This document shows positions 19,502-62,188 of a stretch of DNA of 64,000 nucleotides, in pieces (the stretch's first letter is position 1; each line of letters opens with the position of its first letter). Under the pieces are notes generated by a model that was not told where the DNA came from, ran no database searches, and worked only from the letters and a program-made list of their open reading frames with translations. The translations under genes were made by a program, and so were the position numbers. The stretch covers positions 71,534 to 135,533 of IMG/VR virus record IMGVR_UViG_2524614847_000004; one strand, 5' to 3'. The DNA is from a virus. Lineage: Duplodnaviria; Caudoviricetes.

Positions 19502-19720
19502 ATGTTTATAAAATTACGTGACGTAAGAATAGAAAAAGGTATATCAATAAGAGAACTAGAGCAGAAATCGGGGGTTGATAGGTCGACAATCAGTAGGATT
19601 GAGAATGAACAAGCCATTCCTAGCGTATTAACGTTGTGTAAATTGGCATATGCTTTAAATGTGACATTAGATGACTTAGTAGAATATACGGAATATTGTG
19701 AAAAAGAAAAGGGGGAGTAA
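19502..19720 (+). CDS. XRE-family HTH regulator
   Basis: LRDVRIEKGISIRELEQKSGV.RSTISRIEN..PS..TL.KLA.AL; GAGGTG SD before ATG 19502. Confidence 0.85.
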   Translation: MFIKLRDVRIEKGISIRELEQKSGVDRSTISRIENEQAIPSVLTLCKLAYALNVTLDDLVEYTEYCEKEKGE

Positions 19721-19994
19721 TATGTCTGAGAAGATGTATTATAATGTGATTTGTGAGGAGATTGGAGTTACTGGCGGTAAAATTATTCATGTTGATGAGA
19801 ATAAAGGTACGATTCAAGAAGTTCATGATCTTGTAGATGAGAATATTGAAAAGTGGCCAAATGGGAAGTTTATCCAAGATTTTTTAAAGCTTTATTTTCT
19901 ATTTAAATACCGATTTGTTTTAGATTTTAGGCGCTTATGCTGTAACAGGTATGGGCGCTTTTTGTATGTAAAAATGAAAGGAAGTGATTTTCGT

Positions 19995-21014
19995 ATGAAG
20001 AAAATACCAGAAGTAACAAGCGAAGAATGGGGTAAAGTTAATGTATTTAACAGGTTTATTTATGACGATTTCTTTGCCAACAACATTGAACTATCAGACA
20101 AATCTATTAAGGCATATCGTAGTTCATTAAAAATTTGGTTCAGATGGGTTATGGAGAATTTAAGCAACAAACAACAGACAGAAATTAAGGGGTTGGACTT
20201 TAAGAGGTATCAGAACTGGCTAATAAGTCTTGGACACTCTTCTTCTGACATTTCAAATAAACGTGCTGCTGTTAGCAGTTTAAATAATTACATAATGGTA
20301 TATTACGAAAGCGATTTTCCTACATTTCGCAACTTCATCAATTCCTCAATAAAGAAACCAGAAAAGTCTTTTGTTAGAGAAAAGATTCCTCCAACAAAAG
20401 CTGAAATGGAAAAACTTATTTCTACATTAAAAGAAGGTAAGGTTAAAGACAAATATCAGAAAATTGCTTATTTAAAGTTCACATGGGAAACTGGTTGTCG
20501 CAGAGCCGAAACAATGCAAATTATGAAAGACATTATTAACTCTGAACCGATTATAAAAAAGAAATTGGTTAAGTTGGAAGATGGGGCTGAAGAAGAAAAA
20601 GAAATCAAATACTATCTTACCCCGAAAATCAGATGTAAGGGGCGTGGGAAAACCGGAAAAATTCGACGCTTGAAATTCTCTGATTATTCCTTGGAAGCAT
20701 TTAAAAAATGGTTGGAAGAACGAGGAGATGATGATTGCCCATATATGTTTATCACAAAATATAACGGTGGAATTAATCAGGTAAGCGAAACCACATTTAA
20801 TAATTGGTGTACTGATGTATTCTCTCCTATTATTGGTAGACGATTTCATCCGCATATTCTTAGGGAAGGACGAGCGACAAGTATAGTCGTTGAAGAAGGC
20901 AAGAATATCGAAGCAGCTCAAGCCTTGCTTGGACATGAATCGAGCCAAACCACACAGATCTACGTAATTAGAGATGATGAAGATGAGGATTCCGATGAGC
21001 TATTTATGGATTAA
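19995..21014 (+). CDS. Tyrosine recombinase (XerC/D-like) inside the structural module
   Basis: TGCRRAE, KGRG, HILR, LGH..TTQIY catalytic set; SD GAAAGGAAGTGA before ATG 19995. Confidence 0.9.
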   Translation: MKKIPEVTSEEWGKVNVFNRFIYDDFFANNIELSDKSIKAYRSSLKIWFRWVMENLSNKQQTEIKGLDFKRYQNWLISLGHSSSDISNKRAAVSSLNNYIMVYYESDFPTFRNFINSSIKKPEKSFVREKIPPTKAEMEKLISTLKEGKVKDKYQKIAYLKFTWETGCRRAETMQIMKDIINSEPIIKKKLVKLEDGAEEEKEIKYYLTPKIRCKGRGKTGKIRRLKFSDYSLEAFKKWLEERGDDDCPYMFITKYNGGINQVSETTFNNWCTDVFSPIIGRRFHPHILREGRATSIVVEEGKNIEAAQALLGHESSQTTQIYVIRDDEDEDSDELFMD

Positions 21015-21128: not shown

Positions 21129-23216
21129 ATGGATAATTTAATTCTCCAGCTTGTCACTAGGTTGGATTCTAGCAAAACGGCTGATGATGTAAAGAAAATA
21201 CAGGAACAGTTAAATGCTAAAGGTATAACCTTAAAACCCGTTCTTGACACTGCAACAAGTAAAAAGGAAATTCAGAACCTAGCCAAGCAATTACAATCGA
21301 TAATGTCGTCAGTTGACCCGAAGTTTGGTGAGATAGGTGTTAAAGAATATACGTCTGCCATTAATGCTACTATTTCTGCCTCAAAGAAGGCTACTGCTGA
21401 ACAGGACAGATTTGTCAATTCAATGGCACGAGGACGGGAACAATCAGAATTATTACGTTCTGCAGAAGAAAAACGTCAGCAACTGGCGCAAAGTAATGCG
21501 ATAAACAAGAATCTTGAAGCCGAATACATTGAACGTCAGAAAATCTCACAGAAAATTGATGAGCAAGCTAATAAAATAAGAAATTTGCAATCAAGTGGGA
21601 ACGTAGATTTAAATTTTGATAAAGTTAAAACATCAATAAATAATCTTGATAAGATTGGATTGGCAACAGAATCATTAAAAAATGATTTTAAGCAGCTAAG
21701 TGTTCTATATAAAGGTATTGATAGTTCAACTCCGACAAAGCTTATAACCACATACTCTGCCTTTGATTCTCAGTTAAAGAAGGTTAATAATTCAATTGCT
21801 ACACAGAAATTAGGATTATCAGAAGTAAAACAGCAAGTTTCACAAGTAGATAAAATTACTTTTGCTAATCAGATACAAGCGTGGCGTAGAGTTAACTCAG
21901 CAGCCGAGAAAGAATTTGGTGGTACGCTTGATGAATTACTCATCAAACTGAAAGAAATCGATAATAAATCAGATTTCAGTAATCTACAAAAGAAATTTCG
22001 AGGTGTAAAGGCTGAAGCTGACGCTTTAGGGGTTACTGGTAAAAGTATAGGTGACACATTCGCATCAAGTGCACGTAAATTTTCAGAATGGATTGTTTCT
22101 GCTGGCGCTGTAATGACTGTGGTTCAGTCTGTGAAACAGATGGTTTCTAACGTTATAATATTAGACTCAGCAATGACCAATCTTTATAAGGTTACAGATG
22201 AGACAGATAGCAAGTACAATCAGTTTCTGATAAGCGCTAATAAAAACGCACAGGAGTTAGGCAGGTCTGTATCTAGTCTCGTTGAACAAACTGCAACATG
22301 GGCCAAGCTTGGATTTAATATTGACCAAGCAGAACAATTAGCAAAAATTTCTTCTATTTACGCTAACGTGGGCGAAGTTGATGATAAGACTGCAATATCC
22401 GACCTTGTTACGGCAATGAAAAGTTTTAACATCGAAAGTTCAAAAAGTATCACAATTGTAGACTCGCTTAACAAACTTGGAAACGAGTTTGCGACAGATG
22501 CAGGTTCGCTCGGTGAAGGATTAAAAAATGCTGCCTCTGCACTCGCTCTTGGTGGAATGGATATTAACAAATCACTAGCACTTTTAACTGGTGGATCTGA
22601 AATCACTCAAAATGCTGGAGAATTAGGCAACGCTTTAAAGGTCGGTCAAATGCGTGTAATGGGCATGAAAGGCGCTTTAGAAGAACTTGGCGAAGAAGCA
22701 GAAGGTCTTGAATCAGTTAGTAAAATACAAACTCATATTCTTAATCTGACAAAAGGCCAGGTTAATATTATGAACGACGCAGATCCATCGAAATTCAAAG
22801 ATTATTACGAAATTCTTGAAGGTGTTTCTAAGGTATTTGATTCATTAGATCAGACGAAACGTGCCGATCTTTTAGAAACACTTTTCGGGAAACAGCGCGG
22901 CAATCAAGGTGCGGCTGTAATTCAGGCATTTCAGTCTGGACAAGTACAAAAAGCTCTCGATGCATCGATCAATTCGGCAGGTAGCGCATATGCTGAACAG
23001 GAAAAATGGCTTGAATCAATAGAGGCGAAGACGCAGCAGTTTATTGCATCGTTTCAGTCTTTATCGAGTGCCATAGTGGATTCTGATGGGCTAAAACTGC
23101 TTGTAGATTCTGGAACATCTTTAAATAACATTTTAACTGAATTAATTCGAAACTTTGGCATTTTGCCAACGCTTGTATCTGGTGCAGGTATTGCATCATT
23201 CGTAAAAAACTTCGCT
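21129..23216 (+). CDS. Tape measure protein, exon 1 (TP901-type core)
   Basis: Helical Ala/Ser/Gln-rich sequence with LDSAMTNLYKVTDET core; TAG at 23217 is the first three intron bases. Confidence 0.88.
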
Positions 23217-23709
23217 TAGCTCTGAAATAAGAGTTACACTTAAATCTTTCCGAGGGATTTAGTTGGGCTATCTAGGGGGAGGAAATACCATAATGGCGGT
23301 ATATACAATTCCTAGAGACGAAAGTTTTAAAATAAAAAGAGGATTAATTGCTTGAAAGTGTAACGCTCACTACTCTTCTATTTTAGAAGAAGCCGAGAAA
23401 TAAGGCAAATAAGTCAAACGGTTTATACACCGGAGTGAGATTTCTAGGGATAAAAAATAATTCCCGACAGAAGTACAATCACCAACGAAGCAGCTAACCC
23501 TATCTACGCTAAGTCGTGGCATATAATCCGATGGTAGCAATTGCGAAAGCAGTGTCGGGATAAAGTCATAAAAGATAGGGAATGTTCAACGAGCACCATT
23601 CCTCACAGTATGCAAAAGCCTGATTTTGTGTGCTGTTAATGCATGTTCTAAAGTATACGAAGTATCAAACTTCAATGTTATTCAATGTAAGATATCAAAA
23701 CATTTACAC

Positions 23710-23743
23710 TTGTCTGGAAATTTCTTCCTCTCTATGATATAAT
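23710..23743 (+). promoter_or_regulatory. Sigma-A-like promoter for cargo gene 1
   Basis: TTGTCT-N17-TATGAT with an overlapping TGnTATAAT. Confidence 0.55.
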
Positions 23744-23774
23744 AATTTTAAAAAGAGATACAGGAGGGAATTGT

Positions 23775-24404
23775 ATGAAAAGGTTATTAGTTTTATTAAT
23801 GACAGCTACTATTGCTATTTGCAGCACATTTGTTTCTTTTGCAGGAGAATGGAAACAGAACGATAAAGGTTGGTGGTATCAGAACGACGACGGAAGTTAT
23901 GTAACATCTTCATGGAAGGAAATTGATGGGAAACAATATTATTTTGGATGGCATGGTTATATGTTGCATGATACGACTACACCAGATGGGTACTATGTTG
24001 GATCAGATGGGGCGTGGATCCCAGACGGAGAAATCTTGAATTCTGAGGCGGTGAATCCTTTGGGTGATAAGGATTTAGCAATTCAGACATTAGCAAATTT
24101 AATGATTACATTAAAAGACCCCAATTCCCTAGAGGTAAACAAAATATATTGTCAAACAATCGTTGGTGGAGCGGGTGCGATATTGAGGCAGGTTGTTATT
24201 AGATACTCGGCTACAAATACTTATGGTGGAAGAGTTGCAGATTATTATTCTGCATGGGCAAGTCCAAAAGATGGAAGTTTGGTATTAGATAGTGGTTTTA
24301 GGAAGGTTACACAGGAAATCTTAAATTCTGCGTTTGATAAAACCGAGTTAAACATTGATGAAATCTTACCTGCGGCACAACAGTTGGCTAACAGTTGGTA
24401 TTAA
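23775..24404 (+). CDS. Intron cargo 1: secreted cell-wall-binding-repeat protein
   Basis: Signal peptide ..VSFA|GEW, WWYQNDDGSY and TPDGYYVGSDGAW repeats, C-terminal LKDPxS..Y.ATN.YGG domain. Confidence 0.85.
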   Translation: MKRLLVLLMTATIAICSTFVSFAGEWKQNDKGWWYQNDDGSYVTSSWKEIDGKQYYFGWHGYMLHDTTTPDGYYVGSDGAWIPDGEILNSEAVNPLGDKDLAIQTLANLMITLKDPNSLEVNKIYCQTIVGGAGAILRQVVIRYSATNTYGGRVADYYSAWASPKDGSLVLDSGFRKVTQEILNSAFDKTELNIDEILPAAQQLANSWY

Positions 24405-24418
24405 TATTAAGTGCAGTT

Positions 24419-24449
24419 TAAAGAGTCTGAACATATCAGACTCTTTTTA
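24419..24449. terminator. Probably bidirectional intrinsic terminator inside the intron
   Basis: aaagagtctga-acata-tcagactcttttt between two convergent genes. Confidence 0.75.
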
Positions 24450-24575
24450 TGTGTGATAATTTTTGTTCATTATATATATCACAGCCATACACTGATATCC
24501 ACGCTTGTTATAATACGAAAAAGATACCAGTAATCCTCCAAGTTGGCTTGAATTACTTCATAATGCTTAATTATT

Positions 24576-25037
24576 TCACCATTTTGCTCCACAATTCTTA
24601 CAGTGCATTGTGTTCCTAATATTACTACTAAATAATCCGAATGCCAATCCACCAACGGCCTTCTTGGGAAGAGATATTTTCTCTATGTTCGGGCTTCCAC
24701 ATGTGGGACACTTGGGGATATTTTGCTGTATTGCCTCGCTATTGCTGTTAAATGTTGGAGGAACCTGTTTTGTCTCGCGCATTATTTTATATAATTGGTG
24801 TGCTCCATTGAAGTCTAAAGCACATCTTTCTTTTAGTTTTTTAATTAACACAACAGGGGTTTCAGTTGATGTAGCCTCTAATAATTCCTTCGTTAAATCA
24901 AATCTTGTTCCGTTGATTTCACTTATATTTTTGTCAGTTAAATCGATATTTAGTGGATAACCACAAAAAATGCACTTCTCGGCTTCACTAGATATATCTT
25001 TATTACATTCAGGACATTTTATTAACATATTATCCAA
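24576..25037 (-). CDS. Intron cargo 2: double zinc-ribbon protein (likely start ATG 25028)
   Basis: CPEC..CIFCG and CPTCG..CKNCG motifs, hydrophobic GGLAFGLF segment, SD AAGGGG. Confidence 0.8.
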   Translation of the reverse strand: MDNMLIKCPECNKDISSEAEKCIFCGYPLNIDLTDKNISEINGTRFDLTKELLEATSTETPVVLIKKLKERCALDFNGAHQLYKIMRETKQVPPTFNSNSEAIQQNIPKCPTCGSPNIEKISLPKKAVGGLAFGLFSSNIRNTMHCKNCGAKW

Positions 25038-25089
25038 TCCCCTTTTTTGTTTATATTATCATACATATAATCTCATATCAATAGTATCG

Positions 25090-28000
25090 CAACTTAAAGA
25101 CCTCGGAAATCTTTATGCTTTTTTTGATGAGATAAATAAATTGGGCAGTATAGATAATATGTCAAACGTAATGCTTGACAAATTATCAGATTCATTTGTG
25201 GGGTTAAGTGACGCTCAAAAACTAGCAAGAATATCTTCATCAAATCTTTCAAATGAAATGAAACAACAAGTGGCTGGTATGGTTGTAGCGAAGTCTTCCA
25301 CCACCGCCCTCTCCGCTTCTCAAGCCACTGCAACCGCAACCACAACAGGATTTGGCACTGCATTAAAGGGTCTCTGGGCAACCATGCTTGCAAATCCATT
25401 AATTCTGGTGGGTGCCGCTATTACCGCTGGACTGACTGCATGGAATATGTACAAACATTCAGTAGATGAAATGAGGAAATCCACATCTGAAGCCGCATCC
25501 GTATTCAGTGATACTTCCTCTTCTATTGAAGAATATTCAGATAAATACAAAGTATTACATGATGAACTAACTAATGCAAACACCACAGAAGAACGTCAAC
25601 ATGAAATAAAGAGCGATCTTCTCTCTTTACAGAAAGAATTAAATGATAAATATGGAGAAGAATATGGCAAGCTAAATCTCGTTACCGATGCATATAAAGA
25701 TCAGACAGAAGCTATTCTGGCTATGAACAAAGCAGCGGCACAGAAGTTTTTGAATGAGAATAGAGAAGGAATTGAAGATGCCAAGACCCAAATGACTTCT
25801 AAGAAGACATATATGGCTGCAATGGACATTAGTATGTATTCTGAATCTGGTAGCAGCATTCTTGATTTAGCTAAACAGATGGGACTTGATGTTGATGCAA
25901 ATGAATCAACTGGTACTTTTACCGTTAGAATCAAAGCGAATCCTACAGAAGCATACGATTCCATAACAGACTTCATGAATCAAGTGACAGCATTACAAGA
26001 AGACTTTGGGAACGACGACTATGATATTGGGTCGGTGCTTGGGATATCAAGTACCTCGCTAAATCATGCAAAAGATAAAATTGACGAATTTGGTGTTAAG
26101 TACAATTCTGCATTAGAAGCTGAAATAACTATAAATGATAAACTCTCGCGGAGTTTTGAAGAAGTCAAAGGTGCAGTACAAAAGTATAATGACGCATTAG
26201 CTTCCGGTGATGAGACTAAAATTCTATCGGCAAGAGATAATTTAAATAAAGTTAAAAATTCAATTGACCTTACCAGTACAGATTGGAAAGATTATGCGTC
26301 TGTTGTTACAGATGTGTTTGATCAGGCTGATACCGACTTATACGATTTTGAAGGTTCATTAAAGTCAAATAAAGATGGATTAATGAATTTTGCAAAAACA
26401 TTACGTGGAATATCTAAAGAAGATATTCTTGCTATAAGCGATGCCGGGGATAATGAAAACTTCGAGAAACTAAGAGAGGCGGCCGATGAATATGAATTAA
26501 GTGCAGAAGATGTCATTGCAGTTCTTGAAAGATTGAAAATTGTTCAAGGTGATGTTGGCAAATTTGGCGAAGCGGCATTCACTCCTCTTTCCAAACAAGA
26601 AGTAATCTCAAACATCAACTCTCTCTCCGAAGGTTTTGAATCCATTGATAAAATCATGAAGAGTGTATCCGACAAAAACAATCCGTTTGACTATGCTCTG
26701 CTTGATGATGGTAAGTTTACAAAGATATTCAGCACCCTAAATGATGGTGGTGAAGCTTACACAAACTTCATCGAAAAGGTTTCGTCATCACCCAAGGATC
26801 TAAATGCTACTCAAAGTGCATTTGACGAATTGGTTACTACATGGATTGATGGTTCTGGTGTATTAAACGGACTCACTGAGGATAATGCTATTCTCGCTAC
26901 TACTATGCTCCAAAATATGGGTATTGCTAATGCAGAAGAAGTAGTAATGTCACGACTTTCGGCAGCACAGGAACACCTTGCAGCGCAAAAAGCTTATACA
27001 GCAGAAGTAAGTAATGACCTTGCTAATGCTACAGCAAGTGCAATCCCAGGAATTATAGAAGAGGCAACTCAAAGTGACATAGCCAAAGTAGCACTGGCCG
27101 GACTGGTATTAGAAAAAGAGTTTTTTAATGGGAATGCACTGGATACTAGTGGCGATATTGAAAATATCCTCTCTCTTGTTGGAGTAATTGGTACCGCGAG
27201 TAAGGCGTTACAAGCTTTAAATGCGGTAAAATCCGGTAAAGTTGGGGCTGGAGGTAAAGCTAATTATGATTTTATTGTAAGTGCCGCAGAAAAAGAATAT
27301 GAAGATGCAATAAAGGCTGCTTCCGAATATAAAGGCAAGGGTTCAAGTACCAACGTATCGTATACAGGTGGTCCAAAAACAAATAAACCATCTGGCTCTA
27401 AAAAAGATAAAAAAGAAACAAAAAAACCTATTGACTGGATTGCTCGCGGCACTAAAGTACTACAAGATGAGTATGCAAAATTAGAAGAATTAGCCAATAA
27501 AGACACAATTGCATACCTTGGACTGACACAAGAAGAATTTGATAAGGCTAAATCAATTTTCGATAATGGTCTTGGCAATACAGCGAAGGGTTTATCTCAG
27601 CTACAAAGTTATGCGGATAAAGCGGGATTGAGTTTAGGTGAATTATACACAATGATTCAATCTGGTGCTCCTAGTGCTTCAAAAGAAAATGCGCTGCAAA
27701 GTATGCTAGAAATGCAAACTGAAACATTGCTTCCGCAATACCAACGAGAAGTCGAGGCATATTCAAAAGCATATGCAGACGCTTTAAAGGATATTCCATC
27801 TGAATATAAGGCCAAAATTGAGAATGGTGGAGTAGATATTGAATCTTTACCTAGTGATTTAGCTGAAAAAGTTCAAACAGCAATTGATGCCAATGAAAAG
27901 TTGAAAAAATCGGAAGGACAGCTAGAAGAAGGAAGAGAAAAACAGATTCAAACGATTCAAGATTTACATGAGAATAGAATTGCCGCAACCGATATAGAAA

Positions 28001-28584
28001 ATGAAAAATTGGAACAGTCCAATAAGATAATAAAGTCTCAAATAGAATTGATGGAAGCACGTGGAGAGATTGTCGATGCAGATTTCTACAAACGGCAAAT
28101 AAGAAATAATAAGGGTTTGATTTCTGGAAACCAAAAAAATATTGCTGAATGGGAATCTGAAATGGCTGATCTTCGGAAGGCGAACGTTTCCACTAGCTCA
28201 AAAGAATATAAAGAATTACAAGCAAAAGTAAGGGCTGCAAAGAATGAAATACAGGGGATGAAACTTGAACAGGAAGAATACAATAACAAGTTACTTCAAA
28301 TGCCAATTGAAAATGCCTCTATTCTTGTTTCAATGTATCAGGATATTGGGACTGCTATTCGGGGCTGGGGTGATGAGGTTGTAGCTTCTGGAGGGAAATT
28401 AGATGCCGATTATTATCAGAGTTTGATTTTCAATGGAGCATCTGTGATTGGACAGCTTCAGAAACAAAGTTCTCTGATAAAAGATGTTATGGATAATTAC
28501 GAAGTTGGCTCGAATAACTGGAATGAATTATACAAGCAACTACAAAAACTCCGAGATGTCAAGTGCAATTCAGAACATGCGTAA
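25090..28584 (+). CDS. Tape measure protein, exon 2 (frameshifted near 28545)
   Basis: GFGTALKGLWATMLANPLILVGAAI plus long coiled coils; no SD or start of its own; joins exon 1 in frame. Confidence 0.85.
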   Translation, partial: QLKDLGNLYAFFDEINKLGSIDNMSNVMLDKLSDSFVGLSDAQKLARISSSNLSNEMKQQVAGMVVAKSSTTALSASQATATATTTGFGTALKGLWATMLANPLILVGAAITAGLTAWNMYKHSVDEMRKSTSEAASVFSDTSSSIEEYSDKYKVLHDELTNANTTEERQHEIKSDLLSLQKELNDKYGEEYGKLNLVTDAYKDQTEAILAMNKAAAQKFLNENREGIEDAKTQMTSKKTYMAAMDISMYSESGSSILDLAKQMGLDVDANESTGTFTVRIKANPTEAYDSITDFMNQVTALQEDFGNDDYDIGSVLGISSTSLNHAKDKIDEFGVKYNSALEAEITINDKLSRSFEEVKGAVQKYNDALASGDETKILSARDNLNKVKNSIDLTSTDWKDYASVVTDVFDQADTDLYDFEGSLKSNKDGLMNFAKTLRGISKEDILAISDAGDNENFEKLREAADEYELSAEDVIAVLERLKIVQGDVGKFGEAAFTPLSKQEVISNINSLSEGFESIDKIMKSVSDKNNPFDYALLDDGKFTKIFSTLNDGGEAYTNFIEKVSSSPKDLNATQSAFDELVTTWIDGSGVLNGLTEDNAILATTMLQNMGIANAEEVVMSRLSAAQEHLAAQKAYTAEVSNDLANATASAIPGIIEEATQSDIAKVALAGLVLEKEFFNGNALDTSGDIENILSLVGVIGTASKALQALNAVKSGKVGAGGKANYDFIVSAAEKEYEDAIKAASEYKGKGSSTNVSYTGGPKTNKPSGSKKDKKETKKPIDWIARGTKVLQDEYAKLEELANKDTIAYLGLTQEEFDKAKSIFDNGLGNTAKGLSQLQSYADKAGLSLGELYTMIQSGAPSASKENALQSMLEMQTETLLPQYQREVEAYSKAYADALKDIPSEYKAKIENGGVDIESLPSDLAEKVQTAIDANEKLKKSEGQLEEGREKQIQTIQDLHENRIAATDIENEKLEQSNKIIKSQIELMEARGEIVDADFYKRQIRNNKGLISGNQKNIAEWESEMADLRKANVSTSSKEYKELQAKVRAAKNEIQGMKLEQEEYNNKLLQMPIENASILVSMYQDIGTAIRGWGDEVVASGGKLDADYYQSLIFNGASVIGQLQKQSSLIKDVMDNYEVGSNNWNELYKQLQKLRDVKCNSEHA

Positions 28585-62114: not shown

Positions 62115-62188
62115 TGGCTAATAGCTCAGTCGGTTAGAGCGCCTGTCTGTTAAACAGGATGTCGTAGGTTCAATTCCTACTTAGCCAG
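62115..62188 (+). tRNA. tRNA-Asn (GTT), CCA not encoded
   Basis: Acceptor tggctaa/ttagcca, D-arm gctc/gagc, anticodon cctgt-ctGTTaa-acagg, T-arm gtagg-ttcaatt-cctac. Confidence 0.93.

Follow-up and report, generated by a model that had tools for sequence, protein, structure and literature searches.

The stretch analysed here, referred to as the window, comprises 64,000 nucleotides (nt) of a 135.5 kilobase (kb) provirus record (IMGVR_UViG_2524614847_000004, positions 71,534 to 135,533; Caudoviricetes) and contains a tape measure protein gene that is interrupted by a predicted group I intron. The open reading frame (ORF) 21129-23219 (696 amino acids) and the frame that stays open onward to 28584 form one tape measure gene. 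The interrupting element is read, with a probability of roughly three in four, as a group I intron in which an extended P10 helix of ∼20 base pairs (bp) finds and positions the distant exon 2. The features on which this reading rests are the following.

21129-23216, + strand: tape measure protein exon 1, 696 codons (ORF list; Pfam PhageMin_Tail, E 2.3e-21; uninterrupted homologues)
23217-25089, + strand: predicted group I intron (1873 nt, with a 5' core, a 3' tail of cargo genes and a final G)
25090-28584, + strand: tape measure protein exon 2, 1164 codons plus stop (ORF list; uninterrupted homologues)
23241-23265, + strand: guide, the intron strand of the putative extended P10 (conserved pairing part 23247-23265)
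25090-25115, + strand: exon strand of the putative extended P10, within coding sequence (conserved part 25090-25109)
23266-23268, + strand: internal guide sequence proper, complementary to exon 1 bases -3 to -1 (23214-23216), the splice-site pair being G-U

The limits of the intron were set by comparing the junctions of nine related viral loci, which were fetched by the end of exon 1. In two of the nine (L003 and L004) homology to exon 1 and exon 2 lies in one frame with nothing between, and because these loci read through the junction without interruption the intron was limited to 23217-25089. With L003 and L004 as reference, the host frame is continuous after removal of the intron. The base preceding the intron is T and its final base is G, matching the group I expectation. 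A group I intron had been proposed in an earlier sequence-only reading of the window and was borne out by these junctions and by the covariation of the core described below.

The same intron was found at the same tape measure codon in 11 further viral records, 14 metagenome stretches and at least one genome contig. Introns at this site measure 881, 1124, 1712, 1796, 1873, ∼3670, 4238, 5453 and 5702 nt and fall into four sequence types.

Type A: the window, L011, L019 and the variant L058
Type B: L006, L008, L010, L017, L018, L020 and most metagenome stretches
Type C: L030
Type D: L009 and L132

Loose pattern scans returned 31 viral and at least 120 genome stretches; among the matches listed six passed the motif filter, of which L058 and L132 were new and useful and L009 was a record already known. 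The other three (L043, L057 and L068) contain another group I-like element, located in a different gene and with short core motifs in common with this intron family. A blastn search of the phage collection found nothing. Part of the stretch is contained in 23 sequencing runs and most of it in only two of them (X1, marked as the possible source, and X2 from the same sample). The stop codon of the exon 1 ORF (23217-23219) is formed by the first three bases of the intron; by eye, the stop codon at this site differs in two type A relatives and again in type D, and in types B and C the exon 1 frame continues into the guide region.

An inverted-repeat search gave ungapped arms of 21 nt at 23241-23261 and 25095-25115 with 81% complementarity; as RNA, with exon base 25095 bulged, 21 of 26 positions pair. 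The sequence-only reading had described a P10 guide of ∼25 nt at 23241-23265 with a perfect 9-bp core. The core is present as described (23247-23255 with 25101-25109) and the guide is indeed long and of the P10 type, but the conserved helix amounts to ∼20 bp (25090-25109 with 23247-23265), not 25. The 3' end of the guide adjoins the G that pairs with the last base of exon 1, and the first base of exon 2 (+1) pairs with 23265; the two exons would therefore abut on a single guide strand, the arrangement that defines P10. The energy of the guide-exon duplex in the window is -21.7 kcal/mol. Shuffled exon sequences gave a mean of -6.8 kcal/mol (standard deviation 2.3), and none of 2000 mononucleotide shuffles was as low.

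Both the guide and the beginning of exon 2 could be read in 12 loci, which gave nine distinct guide/exon rows. In register, these rows have 19, 22, 21, 19, 19, 21, 20, 22 and 20 paired positions out of 24, and registers slid by 1-3 positions gave 16/24 at most. Pairing begins at exon base +1 in all nine unique rows; 167 of 180 cells are paired between +1 and +20, and past +20 the pairing is lost. Counted from +1, 18/18 positions are paired in type D, 18/19 in type C and 21/21 in one type B row. Covariation between guide and exon 2, which the sequence-only reading had named as the check on its guide, was observed across the four intron types in the form of compensatory changes, with two Watson-Crick types differing on both sides at ten of the 20 positions. 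The non-Watson-Crick cells include 13 G-U and no A-C, a pattern that agrees with pairing of the sense transcript and not with a DNA repeat or an antisense RNA. Some of the changes in exon 2 alter the protein and are tracked by the guide nonetheless. Duplex energies range from -17 to -29 kcal/mol with the own exon, from -5 to -13 kcal/mol between types A and B and from -14 to -17 kcal/mol between types A and C. The energies separate the types and cross-type pair counts fail to do so; the counts are uninformative because the exon starts are similar and AT-rich. In the variant L058 (with exon 2 taken from L190) the 9-bp core is kept and uncompensated changes lie near the splice site, as judged by eye and outside the counts given above. 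The guide-exon pairing thus represents an extended P10, an RNA helix of ∼20 bp kept by selection, and the alignment shows this selection to act at the RNA level.

The catalytic core was modelled on an alignment of 14 distinct cores, starting from RNAalifold and completed by hand. Its elements, together with the preceding P2, are placed as follows.

23272-23315, + strand: P2 stem-loop (compensatory changes in 5/5 outer and 3/5 inner pairs)
23339-23653, + strand: predicted catalytic core (pair counts over the 14-core alignment)
23339-23343/23600-23604, + strand: P3
23348-23353/23488-23493, + strand: P4, with an extended P5 between the strands
23498-23580, + strand: P6 with extensions
23589-23595/23644-23649, + strand: P7, with one bulged base
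23605-23636, + strand: P8

Of the 1299 cells of the core 88.5% are paired, compared with 38-48% when the partners are slid by 1-3 columns, and changes on both sides occur in 34 of 94 core pairs, compared with 5-9 in the slid controls. The pairing and covariation scores of the core were matched by none of 500 shuffles. The two helices of the P3/P7 pseudoknot are each 100% paired and each contain two compensatory pairs; P4 is likewise fully paired (100%), and covariation is seen in P8 and in P6 with its extensions. Of 11 introns compared at this site, all end in G. An initial placement of P4/P5 at 23526-23560 was abandoned after RNAalifold and the type C sequence gave P4 and P3/P7, and this segment was reassigned to the P6 extension. 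No group I or group II match was obtained with Rfam at the gathering score, nor at E<=1 over 10 kb. On the modelled structure, the membership of 23217-25089 in the group I introns is regarded as established.

Contacts with exon 1 involve the internal guide sequence and two further segments.

23217-23236, + strand: first intron hairpin with a 7-bp stem (91.8% of cells paired, three compensatory pairs)
23317-23327, + strand: second exon 1-pairing segment, downstream of P2 (proposed by RNAalifold)

Between the internal guide and exon 1 all 33 cells (100%) are paired, and the terminal U of exon 1 is paired to the guide G in 11/11 sequences. The pair neighbouring this splice-site G-U occurs as A-U in five sequences, C-G in four and G-C in two, so that the guide is contiguous with a covarying P1. 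As an alternative to the first hairpin, 23217-23221 can pair with 23261-23265 as an extension of P1; the resulting classical P1 (three exon pairs plus five intron pairs) is 89.8% paired, compared with 12-57% in slid registers. The segment 23317-23327 pairs with exon 1 bases -10 to -3 (in the region 23207-23216) and additionally forms a G-U with base -1; 97% of the cells are paired, with one compensatory change among 11 sequences. This pairing and the classical P1 could be alternatives. The segment may possibly serve to tether the cleaved 5' exon, which would otherwise be held by three pairs only.

The guide can also fold on itself, and the sequence-only reading had assigned to the local hairpin the role of a mask and to its loop that of a toehold.

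23241-23246 and 23256-23261, + strand: arms of the putative mask hairpin, folding within the guide

The arms exist and are complementary in types A, B and C, in which the hairpin occurs. In type B it is strong (-7 kcal/mol, z about -3.3). The minimum-energy fold in the window has an energy of -6.0 kcal/mol with z -1.2 and was equalled by 25 of 200 shuffles, so that by itself it is not significant there, and folding of the type D guide showed the mask hairpin to be absent. In types B and C the 5' arm pairs with no part of exon 2 and yet complements the 3' arm; the hairpin itself therefore seems to be kept. A masking role is thus plausible, not general. As a toehold, the minimum-energy fold leaves just three bases in the loop. 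Short stems at the start of exon 2 had looked compensatory in five lineages, prompting the idea of a kissing-loop contact between the guide hairpin and an exon 2-start hairpin; this contact was rejected, since the exon hairpins were no more stable than shuffled sequences (z about 0).

The core ends near 23658, and all sequence beyond it varies between relatives. In three metagenome runs contigs match the window up to ∼23658 and again from 25089/25090, with unrelated sequence between. Save for the final G, conservation is lacking over the 70 nt that close the intron (mean top-letter frequency 0.43), and therefore no conserved structure able to present the splice site is seen at its 3' end. Two cargo genes occupy the tail in the window.

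23710-24446, + strand: cargo gene 1 (promoter-like sites 23710-23743, ORF 23775-24404, intrinsic terminator 24420-24446)
24576-25037, - strand: cargo gene 2, a zinc-ribbon ORF antisense to the host gene (Pfam Zn_Ribbon_1; probable ATG at 25028)
25081-25053, - strand: promoter-like site of cargo gene 2, inside the last 40 nt of the intron (promoter scans)

The product of cargo gene 1 (209 amino acids, with a choline-binding repeat and an N-terminal signal-like segment recognized by eye only) looks secreted. The terminator, which the sequence-only reading had placed between core and 3' splice site as an obstacle to the full-length protein, is real at 24420-24446: it has an 11-bp stem, a T-rich tail and a hairpin energy of -14.5 kcal/mol (z -4.3). 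The gene that it ends is a cargo gene present at that place in the window alone. The terminator is not conserved, the tail of L011 having a single + strand terminator-like site and that of L008 none, and it is not regarded as part of a conserved design. An antisense zinc-ribbon ORF of 95-219 amino acids lies beside the 3' splice site in all eight type A-C introns (window, L006, L008, L011, L019, L020, L023 and L030), and all eight ORFs have a common C-terminal module of ∼45 residues, for which Pfam gives generic zinc ribbons only. Their matches in the Atlas are mostly phage hypothetical proteins. By eye, type D has a different ORF at this position. The tails of L006, L008 and L011 encode a PBECR3 nuclease domain, helix-turn-helix (HTH) proteins, a Bro-N/ANT antirepressor, an S24 LexA-like protein and a GmrSD_N domain. 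By function, the genes in the tails of relatives thus include a restriction-type nuclease domain, a nuclease-toxin-like domain and proteins of the repressor-like and antirepressor kinds. Pfam gave no transposase and no homing-endonuclease family in the two cargo ORFs of the window or in the ten scanned in relatives (12 ORFs selected). The smallest intron (881 nt) has one antisense gene, no + strand cargo gene that could be seen and the long guide. By its gene content, the intron tail behaves as a hotspot for accessory genes.

The tape measure gene family is also interrupted elsewhere: near residue 510 by inserts of ∼1.3 kb (L008 4713-6001 and L010 6330-7618), near residue 582 by one of ∼1.8 kb (L009 6531-8315) and near residue 663 (L005 after 6789). 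By eye, these inserts look unrelated to the intron at 23217-25089. Directly upstream of the tape measure gene lies a tyrosine recombinase ORF at 19698-21014 on the + strand (Pfam Phage_integrase; PHROG integrase). A short conserved region that L003 also has, without the recombinase part, corresponds to the first ∼58 residues of this ORF; the recombinase part is matched at 92% in L005 and at 27% in L011. A tRNA gene is located at 62115-62188 on the + strand (Rfam, 74.7 bits).

The ribozyme core occupies the first ∼440 nt and the remainder of the intron is a tail of independent accessory genes, which places the 3' splice site far from the core; in the proposed mechanism exon 2 would be located by the helix 23247-23265/25090-25109. 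The extended P10 would align exon 2 with exon 1 on one guide strand for ligation and so replace local 3' structure in finding and holding the 3' splice site, freeing the tail for genes. Before exon 2 is transcribed the guide would fold on itself, its 5' arm imitating exon 2 and limiting mispairing; once made, exon 2 would displace the 5' arm of the hairpin. In the window the full-length protein needs transcription past the cargo terminator, for which partial read-through may suffice. We infer for the helix a role in the choice of the 3' splice site in cis and in tethering, which would have allowed the cargo to build up.

The other explanations weighed differ in what the guide would be for. The sequence-only reading had proposed that the terminator halts the pre-mRNA and that antitermination, or capture of a separate exon 2 RNA in trans, controls tail assembly. 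In favour of this are the genuine and apparently strong terminator, the suitability of a 20-bp guide for a reaction between two molecules, and the benefit that engineered trans-splicing ribozymes draw from extended guides (PMC6155759). Against trans-splicing, all 12 of 12 loci have exon 1, core and exon 2 in line on a single strand, and the postulated separate exon 2 transcript has no + strand promoter-like site to start from between the terminator and the 3' splice site (24447-25089, scanned with the sigma-70 consensus only). The lack of conservation of the terminator in L011 and L008 likewise speaks against this model, as does the occurrence of the guide in the 881-nt intron, where no + strand cargo gene was seen. 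Control of tail assembly by either route is accordingly speculation and is considered distinctly improbable. A compound version, in which both exons would be held by long programmable helices (the 20-bp guide, and the three-base guide plus a 6-9 bp tether at 23317-23327) and in which, once transcription had stopped at a cargo terminator, exon 1 with the ribozyme would use the loop of its guide hairpin to take up, in trans, an exon 2 RNA that had been made or processed separately, or a switch between masked and open guide would operate, gating tail assembly, appears slightly less probable still; if it were true, tape measure synthesis and tail assembly would depend on natural bacterial trans-splicing or on a guide switch.

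It is unlikely, though worth retaining as an alternative, that the long guide is kept mainly for mobility, that is for reverse splicing or for matching its own tape measure allele rather than for forward splicing. The absence of Pfam homing-endonuclease families from the scanned cargo ORFs (two in the window, ten in relatives) and the allele specificity of the guide by duplex energy would agree with this; forward and reverse splicing, however, share helices, so that comparative data cannot tell them apart, and forward splicing would be selected in any case, since a non-splicing intron in an essential tail gene would be lost. An inverted repeat acting as DNA, marking the ends of mobile or invertible cargo for a recombinase such as that at 19698-21014, could be imagined, given that both arms flank the cargo and that the tape measure gene is closely preceded by the recombinase gene. 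The right arm, however, is conserved exon 2 coding sequence and the left arm adjoins the internal guide, the 13 G-U and no A-C cells fit sense RNA pairing only, the recombinase part was matched in two of nine related loci searched and the intron in eight of those nine records, and an inverted form was seen in none of the loci; this explanation is very improbable. Least probable of all is a chance complementarity without function in AT-rich sequence. Inverted repeats of like quality (I1 and I3) do occur nearby in the window, as do comparable duplex energies, but chance would not account for the exact register from exon base +1, for compensatory changes in four types or for the failure of slid registers; it is by this exact position, with conservation and covariation, that the pairing exceeds chance, the energy alone not being unique.

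Several observations weigh against the preferred reading of an extended P10 that selects exon 2 in cis. The Rfam group I model misses the 561-nt core even when E values up to 10 are allowed, recognition by a covariance model being an aid to detection and not a defining feature of group I. The guide/exon rows are related (four types, with five of the rows from type B) and the register was set by the analyst, with a one-base gap for type A; the counts therefore overstate the number of independent events, which is smaller than that of cells. The helix in the window is the least regular of all (19/24, with one bulge and two mismatches). Among 12,794 windows of the 64 kb, near-equal partners of the guide were found at ∼24049 (-22.0 kcal/mol) and ∼20679 (-20.1 kcal/mol). 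The longer pairing of 23317-23327 with exon 1 leaves the choice of the catalytic P1 helix undecided, the sole RNA run (5% of words) matches only 25284-25584 and not the splice junction, and the cargo terminator of the window would truncate a share of transcripts. Finally, the 881-nt intron has the long guide, which is therefore no response to large cargo and precedes it. As to the first of the two near-equal partners, the site ∼24049-24085 (+ strand) lies inside the cargo ORF and could pair with the guide as well as exon 2 does; it may be a product of chance or a possible decoy for the choice of the 3' splice site.

The arrangement can be compared with several known systems. The sunY (nrdD) intron of T4 reportedly has a remote 3' splice junction, described by Michel and colleagues in the early 1990s. 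It combines a 5' core with a long ORF-bearing 3' part, and its distant 3' splice site is returned by pairings. The position of the core, the long 3' part and the far-off 3' splice site are alike in the present intron, whereas sunY uses a structured 3'-terminal domain (P9.0 and its neighbours) and a short P10 in place of the long exon pairing found here. In the trans-spliced group I introns of organelles the intron is split, the halves pair and the 3' exon is brought in across the discontinuity. Base pairing bridges the way to the 3' exon in these introns as it does here, but it is the intron itself that is split, while the present gene is colinear in every one of the 12 loci. The tape measure genes of Bacillus cereus group prophages contain group I introns (Tourasse and Kolsto, 2008, PMC2504315). 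These are self-splicing introns in the same setting, with several insertion sites per gene and with P1 and P10 adapted to the insertion site. The P10 motifs boxed in that paper are short, compared with ∼20 bp here in introns with up to ∼5 kb of unrelated tail genes. IStrons, which consist of a group I intron plus an insertion sequence (IS) element (PMC4227781), resemble the present intron in their 5' ribozyme, in the cargo between core and 3' splice site and in a long helix of 6-34 bp that bridges the cargo. In IStrons the bridging stem is internal to the intron and encloses transposase genes, unlike the intron-to-exon bridge found here, and no IS200/IS605 or IS607 transposase was found in the two cargo ORFs of the window or the ten scanned in relatives. 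In engineered trans-splicing ribozymes the guide 5' of the internal guide G has been lengthened for binding and specificity of the partner, as it is lengthened here, but those guides are designed and bind the 5' substrate (PMC6155759), whereas the present one is natural, acts in cis and lies on the 3' exon side. The claim of a P10 far longer than the usual few base pairs holds against the 4 bp described in PMC3428280 and the optimum of ∼6 bp given in PMC6155759 for the engineered ribozymes. No natural long P10 was found in full-text literature searches, in which the sole match to 'long P10' proved to be a helix of 4 bp. Already known are remote 3' splice sites, cargo bridged by a long intron-internal stem and the presence of group I introns in the tape measure genes of prophages; the ∼20-bp exon guide appears to be a new variation on them.

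Recognition of the 3' exon by group I introns is usually described as involving a few base pairs. On the reading preferred here, a natural lineage has stretched this contact to ∼20 bp, co-evolving with coding sequence, and would offer a natural counterpart to the extended guides engineered into splicing ribozymes. The idea is directly testable, because compensatory mutations can be introduced into guide and exon. The long contact would be a simple account of how an intron tolerates kilobases of genes between the ribozyme and the 3' splice site, and the intron would serve as a cargo site within an essential tail gene.

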